A DNA stretch of 64,000 nucleotides. Origin: a virus. Its lineage: Duplodnaviria; Caudoviricetes. The notes under the pieces are model-generated. The model had not been told where the DNA came from. It worked only from the letters and a program-made list of their open reading frames with translations, and searched no databases. Both the position numbers and the translations under genes were made by a program. Where the stretch lies: the IMG/VR virus record IMGVR_UViG_3300017700_000931, positions 256,001 to 320,000 of that record; one strand, written 5' to 3'. Positions 10,039 through 55,870 of the stretch are shown here, piece after piece; positions within the stretch are counted from its first letter, which is position 1; each line of letters starts with the position of its first letter.

Positions 10039-10208
10039 AATAAGGAGTTAATTTAAGTTAGTAATTTATTTGACTGGTACAAATATAAGATAGTATTTCC
10101 GAATAAACAAATATATTATAGTATATTTTCAATTTATTTTTAAAATCCTAACGTTTATGCGGGTTTGAGTTAGTGAAATAAAATAATACGAAAATATATG
10201 CTTTTTTA

Positions 10209-10240
10209 TTTGGTAGATTGAAATAAAGTTCTTATCTTTG
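10209..10240 (+). promoter_or_regulatory. plus-strand promoter with no downstream ORF
   Basis: TTTG 10209-10212, TATCTTTG 10233-10240. Confidence 0.8.
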
Positions 10241-10312
10241 TTTTGTCAGTGGTGAATAACTGAGACGGGTCGACCAGAAAAGTTGAGAGAGTAGACTCCA
10301 CTGTGCCTTATA
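10241..10312 (+). ncRNA. candidate small RNA, twin copy 2
   Basis: Homologous to 8924-9000; ends pair (CAGTGG 10247-10252 / CCACTG 10298-10303). Confidence 0.5.
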
Positions 10313-10427
10313 TTTTTTTACACATGAATTTTCGACCTGTATAATATTTGACATGACCAAATAATTTACACAAAAGTTATTAACAATTATTTTGTTAATA
10401 ACTTTGATGAAAAAAGTTACATAAAAA

Positions 10428-10459
10428 TTTGGTAGAACCGAATTAATGTATTATCTTTG
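10428..10459 (+). promoter_or_regulatory. plus-strand promoter with no downstream ORF
   Basis: TTTG 10428-10431, TATCTTTG 10452-10459. Confidence 0.8.
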
Positions 10460-11016
10460 TTATGTACATTCCATATCTGCATAAACGGCAGACAGCCACC
10501 CCCTACCCTTTACACTGGGTTTTAGGGGGTAGAGTCGTTACACCTCTTTTTTAGGGGGTACCGAAAGGAACCGTTACATACCTATGTTAATAGCCTGTTT
10601 TTGCCTTACTGCAAAGATACTAAAAATATCTGACAACTGCAAGGAATAGAGGATATTAGACCACGCTTTTTATAAAAATATAATTGCTCAAAAACTTGCA
10701 TATTTCAAAAAATTTGTGTAAAGTATTGAGCGTGTTTATGTTGTACTTCATATTTTTTAGAGGTATCCGGTGCATCACATATCCAATAAGCAGGGTTTTT
10801 GGTATAATTTACCACGATTTACCACTTTCTACCATTTAATGACAACGTGCTAACTCAAGTACAAAAAGGACGCATAACCTATCTGAATGCGGATGCCATA
10901 TTACACAAGATGTAGCACACAATGGGCCTTGAGCTGGGGTATACACAAATGTGTACTAGGGTATGTCATGGTACAGGGTGTCCTGTGGGATTTAGGGTAC
11001 ACAAATGTGTCCTTAC

Positions 11017-31942: not shown

Positions 31943-32977
31943 TTATTTCGTTAGTGTATTAACCTCAATCTTCTTTGATATCCAATGGCCATGTGAATTA
32001 TTAATCAATTGTCTAAACTCTGGCCGGACAAACTTAGCTACTGACCTTCTAAAATCAATATAATTAAATTCATCTGCAATCCTCACAACATAACCCTCAT
32101 TAGTCTTCTCATGATTGCTGAATGCTTCTATAATACTATCCTTATCATAGATACCATCATAAATTACTGGTACCATTTCAAGACCAAGTATCTTAGAGTA
32201 TTCAACTGTTTCATCCCAAGATAAGCATCTATTATCCATCCACATCGAAAACATCATAAAGTACGATTTAAGATTATCATACTTTACTGTGTGAACAGCA
32301 TACAAGTTCTCACCACAAATACGCATATTATCATCGAGCATATACCCAATTTGAGACCATAAACCTTTCACCCAATTGCGTGTTTCATGTGAGGCAGTTT
32401 CTAATGACCTAGCATGGATGTAATCATTATACATGGTGGTATTTTCACCATCCATCTTAAGTGATACAATAACCCTCTTACCAATGAAATGGCTATCATC
32501 TTTTAATATCCGGTCATCCTTTAATAAATGACTCCAAGGTAGGTGATATGTTCTAGGATATTTAACATGTTTTTGGAATAGGTCTAAGACACCGCCTTGT
32601 TGGAGAATTCGTTGTACTGATTCATCGTAGAATAATTCGCCTTTGATTCGTAGTCCGGTTGGGGTTATGATGTTACCCCATTTATCGTATGTGTAATCTG
32701 AATAGAAATGCTCTGGTAATACAATATTTTCTATACCAATTTTATTTCTAATTTCATCACAAGTGAGTGTTGTTTGTTCAGCTTCGATATGGTGTTGTTC
32801 ACAAAGGGATGCACCGTTGTTTAGATAGTAACCACCATCATGAAATAATCTACGTTCTATGATATGGTGAGCGTCCTTGGCTGGATTACCACAAATGATA
32901 CATTTGAAACCATCTCGTTCAAATGTTCCATTTCTAAATTCATCTCGTGATATGAGTTTATTTTTTTCGATAATCAA
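31943..32977 (-). CDS. ATP-dependent RNA ligase (Rnl2-like nucleotidyltransferase) with an N-terminal HNH domain
   Basis: KYPRT.HLPWS, motif I KMDG, RICGENL, FMMFSMW, EGYVVR, VAKFVR; N-terminal CIICG..AKDAHHII...NGASLCEQHH. Confidence 0.85.
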   Translation of the reverse strand: MIIEKNKLISRDEFRNGTFERDGFKCIICGNPAKDAHHIIERRLFHDGGYYLNNGASLCEQHHIEAEQTTLTCDEIRNKIGIENIVLPEHFYSDYTYDKWGNIITPTGLRIKGELFYDESVQRILQQGGVLDLFQKHVKYPRTYHLPWSHLLKDDRILKDDSHFIGKRVIVSLKMDGENTTMYNDYIHARSLETASHETRNWVKGLWSQIGYMLDDNMRICGENLYAVHTVKYDNLKSYFMMFSMWMDNRCLSWDETVEYSKILGLEMVPVIYDGIYDKDSIIEAFSNHEKTNEGYVVRIADEFNYIDFRRSVAKFVRPEFRQLINNSHGHWISKKIEVNTLTK

Positions 32978-33335
32978 TTATTTCTTCACCTTTATCATGG
33001 TTACACTCATAACAAAGTGTTTGTAAATTATTCTTTCTATTCAATCCACCTTTAATTAATGGTATGATATGGTCAATAGTAAGTGGGTTATTTTTGGAAC
33101 CAACAGACAAACACTTTAAACAAGCATTTCCATCACGTTTAAAAATGTTTAGTCTAAGAGATTTTCTAACCCGATTTTTTTTTGGCCGGATACCATATTT
33201 GAAATTTGTGTTTATTGTGTTTGGTATTTCAATTAGTCGTTTTGGTTTTTTGACTAATGGGTAAGGTGTTTCATCAACATTACCACAATTATAGCAGACA
33301 TATCTGATAAATTCATGCCCACACGAACACAACAT
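32958..33335 (-). CDS. HNH endonuclease
   Basis: IFKRDGNACLKC...LTIDHIIPLIKGG.N..NNLQTLCYECN..K. Confidence 0.9.
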   Translation of the reverse strand: MLCSCGHEFIRYVCYNCGNVDETPYPLVKKPKRLIEIPNTINTNFKYGIRPKKNRVRKSLRLNIFKRDGNACLKCLSVGSKNNPLTIDHIIPLIKGGLNRKNNLQTLCYECNHDKGEEIIDYRKK

Positions 33336-33336
33336 A

Positions 33337-33567
33337 TTATTGTTCGTTACGAAGTTTACAGAATTTACAGTTACCCTTATGGGTTAAAAAATCGGCTTGA
33401 CTACTAATGTTAGTAACACGCCCAATATATTCACAACTATCTATTGTGTATGTATTGAGTGTTCTACCATCAATAACGATATCTGTTGTTTCAACACTAA
33501 CATTAGCATTGGGATAATCACATGATGTGATTACTAGCAATGAAATAAAGAGTATAATTGTTCTCAT
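33337..33567 (-). CDS. putative lipoprotein
   Basis: LLVITS-C lipobox. Confidence 0.7.
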   Translation of the reverse strand: MRTIILFISLLVITSCDYPNANVSVETTDIVIDGRTLNTYTIDSCEYIGRVTNISSQADFLTHKGNCKFCKLRNEQ

Positions 33568-33589
33568 ATTATAATATTATTTAAAAAAT

Positions 33590-33809
33590 GTTACTTATAA
33601 AACGTCGGATTCGTAAAAACTAAGTAACTTTTCTGTATGATGTTTTTAGCACCCAAGGTATCTTCAAGGAATAAATTCCTACATGAACACCAAACCTCCA
33701 CAGAAAATGTTTTCGTTCCAAGTACAGATGAAATGTTTATACCGCTACTCAAGTTATGTCGTTTCCGAGCTTTCTTTTTTGCAAGAGGAAGTAAGATACT
33801 GACCTCCCC
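33590..33809 (-). ncRNA. ~220-nt structured RNA candidate with a loop-to-distal pseudoknot
   Basis: 7-bp 5' hairpin whose loop GTATCTT matches distal AAGATAC; 8-bp, 7-bp and 8-bp further helices; a TCG-GAAA-CGA tetraloop. Confidence 0.5.
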
Positions 33810-33823
33810 ATTCACTGTTTAAC

Positions 33824-33953
33824 TGGTGTGCCACAAGGGAATCGAACCCCACACTTTCCCAGAACAACGCTCCGTCGAGCCTTTCATCAGGTTACCCCGT
33901 ATATTATTGTTTTAACATAGCTGTCCGGCCCACTAAAACTCAATATGCAGCAC
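33824..33953 (-). ncRNA. 130-nt tRNA-shaped RNA with encoded CCA and an enlarged anticodon domain
   Basis: GTGCTGC/GTGGCAC acceptor + ACCA, TTCGATT T-loop, CCGGA/TCTGG stem enclosing ~60 nt. Confidence 0.75.
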
Positions 33954-33960
33954 AAGTAAA

Positions 33961-34079
33961 AGATTGGTTCCCATTAAAAGTATCCATCAGCTCAACAAAG
34001 GGCCTCGTGTCCCAAAAAAGCAGATACTCCGTTCTTTATTTCTTTATTTTATTTGCTTGATTCGGTAAGGAACCAATCT
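33961..34079 (-). ncRNA. 119-nt structured RNA candidate
   Basis: AGATTGGTTCC/GGAACCAATCT 11-bp closing stem; internal AGTATC/GATACT helix. Confidence 0.5.
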
Positions 34080-34083
34080 TTTG

Positions 34084-34184
34084 TGGGCGCAGAGGGATTC
34101 GAACCCCCATCACTCTCATAGAAGTTGGACCAGTTGCAACTGGTTTTCCCCCTCAAGTCGACATCCCCTTAGTCGCACACGCCC
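34084..34184 (-). tRNA. atypical 101-nt tRNA-like gene (possible GCA anticodon in an extended, bulged arm)
   Basis: GGGCGTG/TGCGCCC-A acceptor, CGAC/GTCG D-arm, GGGGG-TTCGAAT-CCCTC T-arm; non-canonical middle. Confidence 0.65.
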
Positions 34185-34218
34185 AAATTAAAAAATAATG
34201 ACACCCATTTCTAAGTGG

Positions 34219-34661
34219 AATGATTAGCAAGGCATCAAACATCCAAGCACCCTATTTAGTTATCTCTATGGTAACGTTTTAATCATCTTACAATAAACAA
34301 CATCACCTTAGCGTGATTATAACGAATGGATTTGGGCCTTTAATGTCAGTCGCACGACGTGTTATATCCTCACCACTCCAATTCCGTACCCCCTAACTCA
34401 GATATACACCTGCTGACCATTACGTTTAACAGGGTCGCCAATTTCGGCTTAATTTTCATCTGAGGATTGGTTGCATCTATTGTTTGTTACTGCTTATCTT
34501 CAGTAGTCATTATTTTTATGAGTGAGTATGACGTATGCCGTCCTTTGGATTTACCCGCAGACCAACGGTTCTCTCACCCATGTTTTTATAAAAATAGAAT
34601 CACTTTCATAATCAGGACCATTTTTATTCGGTGTGCCTCACCAACATGATTACTAATCACT
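34219..34661 (-). ncRNA. ~440-nt large multi-helix RNA candidate
   Basis: End-to-end 10-bp + 6-bp pairing with G-U pairs on the minus strand; internal 9-, 7-, 6-, 6- and 5-bp helices; no long minus-strand ORF. Confidence 0.65.
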
Positions 34662-34697
34662 ATCTATTTTTCAATACTTCAAAGAACTATTCTATTG

Positions 34698-34787
34698 TGG
34701 CGATACTGTGAATCTAACACAGTTTTGCAAAAATTACAGAATCAGTATCTGTGTCATCTAGCCGTCCTAACATTAGACGATACCGCC
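34698..34787 (-). tRNA. atypical 90-nt tRNA-like gene (Glu/Gln-type body, CTG in the anticodon hairpin)
   Basis: GGCGGTA/TATCGCC-A acceptor, GTC-TAATGTTAG-GAC D-arm, 10-nt insertion, ACAGA-TACTGAT-TCTGT, CTGTG-TTAGATT-CACAG. Confidence 0.6.
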
Positions 34788-34792
34788 AATTA

Positions 34793-43905: not shown

Positions 43906-44091
43906 AATATGGAGGTAGCTGAAAATCCTAGATAAGAGTAGGCAAAACAAATAAATCACATTATGAAAACTTTTTTTAAAAATGTATTTACGATTGCAAC
44001 AGGAATTATTGTTGCACTTGTAATTATAGGTGGGATTGTTGTGGCTGTCCTTTATGCTACAAATCCTAATCTAATGAATTATTAGTAAATC

Positions 44092-55812: not shown

Positions 55813-55870
55813 TGCGTGGTAGCTCAGTGGTAGAGCTTTTCGCCGGATGGTTCGATTCCTCCCTACGCAA
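55813..55870 (+). ncRNA. 58-nt tRNA-like RNA lacking the anticodon arm
   Basis: TGCGTGG/CTACGCA-A acceptor, TA-GCTC-AGTGGTA-GAGC D-arm, 8-nt linker, GGATGG-TTCGATT-CCTCC T-arm. Confidence 0.75.

Follow-up and report, generated by a model that had tools for sequence, protein, structure and literature searches.

Results

An ORF-free island carries three tRNA-shaped elements

The locus lies in a complete 362,532-bp phage genome from IMG/VR, which has direct terminal repeats and a G+C content of ∼32%. The window is the whole stretch of DNA analyzed here, 64,000 nt corresponding to bases 256001–320000 of that genome, and positions refer to the window unless given as genome positions. Pfam and PHROG scans identified three co-oriented genes on the minus strand, encoding a small lipoprotein, an HNH endonuclease, and an HNH–Rnl2-type RNA ligase fusion (phrog_24030), the last of a kind already known from jumbo phages (PMC7824862). 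Upstream of these genes is an island of ∼1.2 kb in which the ORF lists contain no ORF, and in an identical Logan contig the gene caller likewise predicted zero genes across it. Only one other contig with the neighboring lipoprotein was found, and this contig is 100% identical. The genome is otherwise densely coding; among its ORF-free stretches that lack a canonical tRNA, the island is the largest, and the remaining large gaps are tRNA arrays. ARAGORN called 57 tRNA genes genome-wide, nearly all of them within 9–70 kb, and the element at the center of this analysis, element B, lies far from these main clusters.

Read on the minus strand, the island consists of element C, an RNA designated X, element A, a hairpin domain, element B, and a 3′ stretch (Table 1). 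Elements C, A, and B are remodeled tRNA shells located on one strand within less than 1 kb, and a U at position −1 is present in all three. Shell C is separated from shell A by ∼510 nt. In element A, a 4-nt loop caps a central arm that is elongated and bulged, and the element scores only 14.8 bits against the Rfam tRNA model. In element C, an extra helix lifts an anticodon-like hairpin with the loop UACUGAU, which places an A at position 33. Within the island, the minus strand showed no terminator-like sites. Two other noncoding features of the window were observed. Positions 10039–11016 form a stretch of 978 nt without a tRNA or an ORF of at least 75 amino acids, where GC skew and gene orientation switch, and which may be a regulatory or origin region. 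Positions 43909–43944 on the plus strand match the Rfam DUF805b RNA motif at 41.7 bits, above its gathering score.

Table 1. Coordinates of the island, its RNA elements, the neighboring genes, and examples of further shells. Positions are those of the window except where genome positions are stated.
Feature	Position	Strand	Basis or remark
Noncoding island	33568..34792	minus	no ORF in ORF lists
Element C, 90-nt tRNA shell	34698..34787	minus	T-loop TTAGATT
RNA X, ∼175 nt	34316..34490	minus	between shells C and A
Element A, 101-nt tRNA shell	34084..34184	minus	D and T arms both good
Hairpin domain between shells A and B	33961..34079	minus	119 nt; closing stem a perfect 14 bp (fold)
Element B, 130-nt tRNA-shaped RNA gene	33824..33953	minus	sequence and fold
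Element B, 5′ acceptor strand GTGCTGC, with U at −1 (33954)	33947..33953	minus	7/7 pairing with 33828–33834
Element B, central arm	33859..33928	minus	unconstrained MFE and hand-drawn structure concur
Element B, T arm with T-loop TTCGATT	33835..33851	minus	sole part of B seen by tmRNA and tRNA models
Element B, 3′ acceptor strand GTGGCAC with A73 and encoded CCA	33824..33834	minus	sequence
Downstream co-oriented genes	31943..33567	minus	Pfam and PHROG scans
Lipoprotein gene (small)	33567–33337	minus	Pfam and PHROG scans
HNH endonuclease gene	33335–32958	minus	Pfam and PHROG scans
HNH–Rnl2-type RNA ligase fusion gene, phrog_24030	32977–31943	minus	Pfam and PHROG scans
Further shell examples	genome 17584–17727, 24683–24792, 25620–25741, 33427–33528, 56622–56711, 70417–70511		acceptor and T-arm scan

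Element B retains the acceptor and T arms of a tRNA and carries a structured domain at the anticodon position

The sequence-only reading of this DNA had described element B as a tRNA shell with a structured domain in place of the anticodon part, rather than an ordinary tRNA, and both its pairwise layout and the tRNA searches described below bear this out. The acceptor stem of 7 bp (GTGCTGC/GTGGCAC), of which two are G-U, is followed by A73 at 33827 and CCA at 33826–33824; the stem sequences, A73, and CCA are as that reading had listed them. The T arm (GGGG-TTCGATT-CCCT, 33850–33836) has the TTCGATT loop that had been pointed out, on a stem of 4 rather than 5 bp with a U-U mismatch as the fifth pair. 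The D region, correctly noted as short, comprises 18 nt that pair weakly and mostly through G-U, and the D arm is degenerate. At the anticodon position, the CCGGA/TCTGG stem and its proposed CAGC/GTTG extension were found to make up one helix (CCGGA-CAGC/GTTG-U-TCTGG, 33928–33920 with 33868–33859) of 9 bp with one bulged U, enclosing 51 nt. This junction is composed of three hairpins, namely a 7-bp hairpin at 33919–33900, a 4-bp hairpin with a GUAA tetraloop of the GNRA type at 33899–33888, and, at 33880–33869, the GCUC-GACG-GAGC hairpin with its GACG loop, which was the one already seen from the sequence.

In total, element B contains 35 pairs over five helices, seven of which are G-U, and the only mismatch is confined to the T stem. 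The hand-drawn structure has an energy of −36.0 kcal/mol, as compared to −37.9 kcal/mol for the MFE structure and −24.0 kcal/mol for the opposite strand. Because the opposite strand folds far more weakly and 7 of the 35 pairs are G-U, the structure is that of a minus-strand RNA. The folding energy of B is unexceptional (z = −1.0); for tRNA-sized RNAs, folding energy alone is usually unremarkable. The shell itself is not due to chance: 63 shells consisting of a T arm and, after it, a 3′ strand with 7/7 pairing to a 7-mer farther upstream were returned by a scan of the real genome, as compared to a mean of 1.05 per dinucleotide shuffle (n = 20). Within the genome, the insert of B has no second copy and does not represent a repeat or mobile element.

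Element B had also been singled out as the sole tRNA-like element with a genomic CCA, which holds within the window, while genome-wide 3 of the 57 called tRNAs encode CCA as well. Nearly all of the others end in N73-C followed by A or T, mostly as CAA, and the phage encodes a CCA-adding enzyme beside its tRNA clusters (genome 59889–60254). The encoded CCA of element B is therefore only weakly informative.

Element B is not recognized by tRNA or other RNA family models

Element B has the 7-bp acceptor stem, the TTCRANY T arm, and the discriminator base of a tRNA, and it has no 5-bp anticodon stem with a 7-nt U33 loop as found in canonical tRNAs. In a genome-wide search with the Rfam tRNA model RF00005 (gathering score, 29 bits), element B had no match at E ≤ 1, whereas 60 other tRNAs scored above the cut-off. 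Rfam returned no match to B in the scan of the window or in local scans at E ≤ 10, at which neither a curated Y-RNA nor any other family was hit. ARAGORN made no call on B with its intron search on or off. Element B is almost certainly unable to decode. A hammerhead reading of the CUGAUGA and GAAA motifs in the insert was considered and rejected, as their spacing is wrong and no Rfam ribozyme matched.

Other small departures from canonical tRNA structure were observed in the course of these searches. At window positions 55813–55870 (plus strand) lies a tRNA-like gene of ∼58 nt with an acceptor stem, a normal D arm, and a T arm, and with no anticodon arm at all; it scored 37.7 bits in the genome-wide Rfam tRNA search and is unlisted in the gathering-threshold scan of the window. 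Two tRNAs called by ARAGORN, at genome 25456–25530 and at 153–227 of the reverse complement of locus L133 in a related phage, have a 6-nt anticodon loop and were reported with the two-base "anticodons" ga and gc.

Only RNA X of the island has a detectable homologue

Homologues of element B were sought by several routes. Blastn with B and the island against 50,697 phage records gave no homologue of B, and neither an exact pattern nor one further pattern scan of IMG/VR found it. Element B was likewise not found by blastn at 26 loci encoding relatives of the ligase (47–82% protein identity) and at 78 lipoprotein loci, or by whole-record BLAST of 40 related phage records. A covariance model built on the single sequence of B, applied to 632 kb of loci and 30 whole records, retrieved only ordinary tRNAs of mixed isotypes. 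Two pattern scans of metagenomes were also negative, the second yielding four chance matches that the covariance model discarded. No parent tRNA for B could be identified within the genome. A weak resemblance was seen between the 5′ part of B and a tRNA-Ala of a related phage together with its 5′ flank, and this resemblance is nonsignificant on its own.

The surroundings of B differ among related phages as well. Apart from the ligase itself, the loci of the ligase relatives contain none of the neighboring ORFs, and in the two similarly sized phages the lipoprotein locus is densely coding. Two observations were made at ligase loci of other related huge phages. At L025 4001–6106, the match to the HNH–RNA ligase is interrupted by ∼1.1 kb, pointing to an insertion or intron. 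In another of these phages, the ligase is followed after ∼740 nt by a permuted tmRNA according to ARAGORN (L020 5760–6104).

RNA X is the sole part of the island with a homologue, which is 89% identical in two blocks and occurs in a 362,102-bp IMG/VR phage record (G021), on the minus strand at ∼1501–1657 of locus L133 and 8 nt after a tRNA-Asp. Rfam contains no family that matches X. The alignment of the two X sequences includes three compensatory pairs (e.g., GAGTGG/CCATTC versus GGGTGG/CCATCC), indicating that at least one member of the island, X, is under structural selection. The island is thus related to the RNA modules of tRNA clusters. G021 is the nearest relative that retains X, and B is absent there. 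Directly downstream of X, G021 carries instead a 188-nt tRNA shell (L133 1301–1488, minus strand) with a T arm, a 6/7 acceptor stem, a CAA tail, and a large multi-hairpin insert, which is analogous to B and not alignable with it. The oversized shells beside X are thus wholly different between the two phages.

Comparable tRNA shells occur in this genome, in related phages, and in T4

About 15 further noncanonical shells of 66–144 nt, all uncalled by ARAGORN, are present in the tRNA regions of the genome (9–73 kb; examples in Table 1). In several of these, long hairpins or multi-hairpin junctions replace the D arm, the anticodon arm, or both, and the 144-nt shell at genome 17584–17727 has a helix at the anticodon position that surrounds several hairpins. 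Many more oversized shells were found in related huge phages. An insert of another sort is seen in a 455-kb phage (G004; L034 656–808), in which a 153-nt tRNA-Leu-like gene has ∼75 nt inserted at the anticodon loop region; with its typical Leu D arm, its T arm, and its CCA, this gene is closer to a true tRNA with an insert than B is.

The closest described counterpart is species 1 RNA of phage T4 (RNAC, gene rnaC; AF158101 70908–71046), which has 139 nt as compared to the 130 nt of element B. The two RNAs share paired ends, a 3′-proximal consensus T arm, long structured inserts, and the lack of a decoding arm. Each is also part of a head-to-tail array that comprises tRNA-type genes and a further small RNA. 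T4 RNAC belongs to a tRNA-Arg/RNAD/RNAC array beside the segB homing endonuclease gene, and the array containing B lies beside an HNH endonuclease gene. Sequence similarity between the two, by BLAST and MAFFT, is limited to 13 nt of the T-loop. In contrast to T4 RNAC, element B has a cleaner 7-bp acceptor stem, an encoded CCA, and an insert only at the anticodon position, and it lies far from the main tRNA clusters and is known here from sequence alone. T4 RNAC is still without an assigned function (PMC3014915, PMC9697503). Oversized tRNAs with "enigmatic introns", perhaps common in large phage genomes, have been described in Lak megaphages (Devoto et al., 10.1101/356790). They share with B the lengthening of a tRNA-like gene of a huge phage by a block in its middle. 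However, the Lak cases are readable as recognizable tRNAs with an insert, and intron-less alleles exist for them, whereas B minus its insert yields no tRNA, and no insert-less allele of B was found, as the searches made gave no homologue. On its own, element B is an orphan and should be regarded as a lead, not as a result; its kind is already known from T4 and from huge phages.

Discussion

We consider it highly probable (∼0.85) that element B is a real, nondecoding element derived from a tRNA. One alternative to be weighed is that B is an intron-bearing pre-tRNA whose halves are rejoined, possibly by the products of the adjacent HNH nuclease and HNH–Rnl2 ligase genes, as the sequence-only reading had entertained. 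The ligase gene is co-oriented with B and ∼850 nt downstream of it, and cuts by an HNH nuclease would leave 5′-P/3′-OH ends, the type of substrate used by an ATP-dependent ligase. The oversized tRNAs of Lak megaphages have, moreover, been interpreted as intron carriers (10.1101/356790). However, when every single-block excision of B was run through ARAGORN, the result was one 104-nt oddity and zero tRNAs of normal size. Whichever 7-nt loop is drawn at the junction, its position 33 is A or C and never U, and the D arm is degenerate. Furthermore, none of the 26 related ligase loci shows the linkage of ligase and island, and the relative that keeps X is not among the ligase matches. Splicing is consequently a very improbable explanation of B. 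Another proposal, a mini-tmRNA-like mimic interacting with SmpB and the ribosome, or a Y-RNA-like mimic interacting with Ro60, draws on the likeness of B to the tRNA-like domain of tmRNA: in both, an acceptor stem is combined with a T arm and A73-CCA, the D stem is weak or missing, and a long helix occupies the site of the anticodon stem. Unlike tmRNA, B has neither pseudoknots nor, as had been correctly observed at the outset, a G3-U70 pair or a tag frame; pair 3–70 is G-C, which leaves B without alanine identity. The tmRNA model (RF00023) matches only a 13-nt stretch at the T-loop, at 10.9 bits as compared to the required 47. A complete tmRNA is already encoded at genome 73052–73434 (minus strand), with a G3-U70 acceptor stem and an Rfam score of 89.7 bits, although ARAGORN missed it. 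The complete 362-kb genome contains no match to TROVE/Ro60, so B is not a Y RNA of the YrlA type. Mimicry of either RNA is hardly credible.

Element B could also be a decaying tRNA pseudogene, that is, a relocated piece of a tRNA cluster that was disrupted by an insertion and is now drifting without function. Its lack of a homologue and its absence from the relative that keeps X would be in keeping with decay, as would the weak D arm, the U-U mismatch in the T stem, the many G-U pairs, and the unremarkable folding energy. Once a real T arm is present, moreover, finding a 7-mer with complete pairing in the 200 nt upstream would be no great rarity, at 5 to 15% as estimated from the pairing probability, and the weak, nonsignificant resemblance of the 5′ part of B to a tRNA-Ala and its flank points in the same direction. 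Yet all 35 pairs of the five helices are kept, the helix of the insert exactly prolongs the stem at the anticodon position, and one of the insert loops is a GNRA loop. With no parent tRNA to be found and the best model matches being of mixed isotypes, a recent disruption is unlikely, and an old one should have cost B its helices. In addition, the three shells tile an ORF-free island in which the neighboring RNA X is under structural selection, as judged from its compensatory pairs. Decay is, on this evidence, an unlikely account of B. A further possibility, the third one put forward in the sequence-only reading, is that B acts as a decoy or inhibitor of a host factor that recognizes tRNAs, such as an anticodon nuclease, a toxin acting on the acceptor end, or a tRNA-sensing defense protein. 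The element retains the acceptor/T-arm half while offering no cleavable anticodon loop, and the phage invests heavily in tRNA biology, with 57 tRNAs, a tmRNA, a CCA-adding enzyme, and an HNH–RNA ligase. Sets of tRNAs and ligases in jumbo phages are generally taken as counter-defense (PMC7824862). However, no defense or anti-defense gene is linked to B, its insert has no recognizable mimicry of a target, and B is not conserved. We regard a decoy as distinctly unlikely, and note that it would be compatible with the shell serving as a processing frame, in which case it would specify the role of the insert.

As for what the tRNA derivation of B might serve, the most likely mechanism, at about even odds, is that its shell is a frame for RNase P and 3′-end processing and for stability of the insert. 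An acceptor stem stacked on a T arm and ending in A73-CCA is what RNase P, the 3′-trimming enzymes, and the CCA-adding enzyme recognize. Since the processing half of the tRNA is kept and the decoding half discarded, we interpret B as a natural "tRNA scaffold", by analogy with the engineered scaffold of Ponchon and Dardel, in which the anticodon stem of a tRNA serves as the attachment site of a foreign structured RNA and the chimera is reportedly processed and stabilized like a tRNA. The topology of that construct is exactly that of B; it is an engineering device and no natural family, and serves as an analogy for mechanism only. We infer the following sequence of events for B. The co-oriented island of ∼1.2 kb would be transcribed as one unit, host RNase P would cut at the 5′ end of each shell (before G 33953 in B, and likewise in A and C), and the 3′ ends would be trimmed. 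Element B would thereby build up as a stable ∼130-nt RNA with the insert as its working part, and the same cuts would set the ends of the RNAs that lie between the shells. The RNAD and RNAC species of T4 are reportedly released by such processing cuts.

A more specific version of this processing model, which we offer as speculative and not probable as it stands, would make the island a tRNA-punctuated, polycistronic operon of noncoding RNAs, and B a tRNA-framed effector whose insert would bind to or block some host factor, such as a defense nuclease or toxin directed at tRNAs. An arms race with such a factor would drive fast evolution of the insert, which would account for the lack of a homologue of B even though X is conserved.

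Nondecoding, tRNA-shaped phage RNAs have been known since T4 species 1 RNA, and huge phages carry many of them; in the genome described here, ∼18 such shells exist beside 57 tRNAs. The locus is a compact case, with three shells, each rebuilt differently in its central arm, that take turns with other structured RNAs. The entire island, and above all the conserved RNA X, is more promising than element B alone. If shells of this kind act as processing and stability frames for fast-evolving inserts, they would represent a general route by which phages arrive at small effector RNAs, and, if this is true, counts of phage tRNAs mix decoders with nondecoders.
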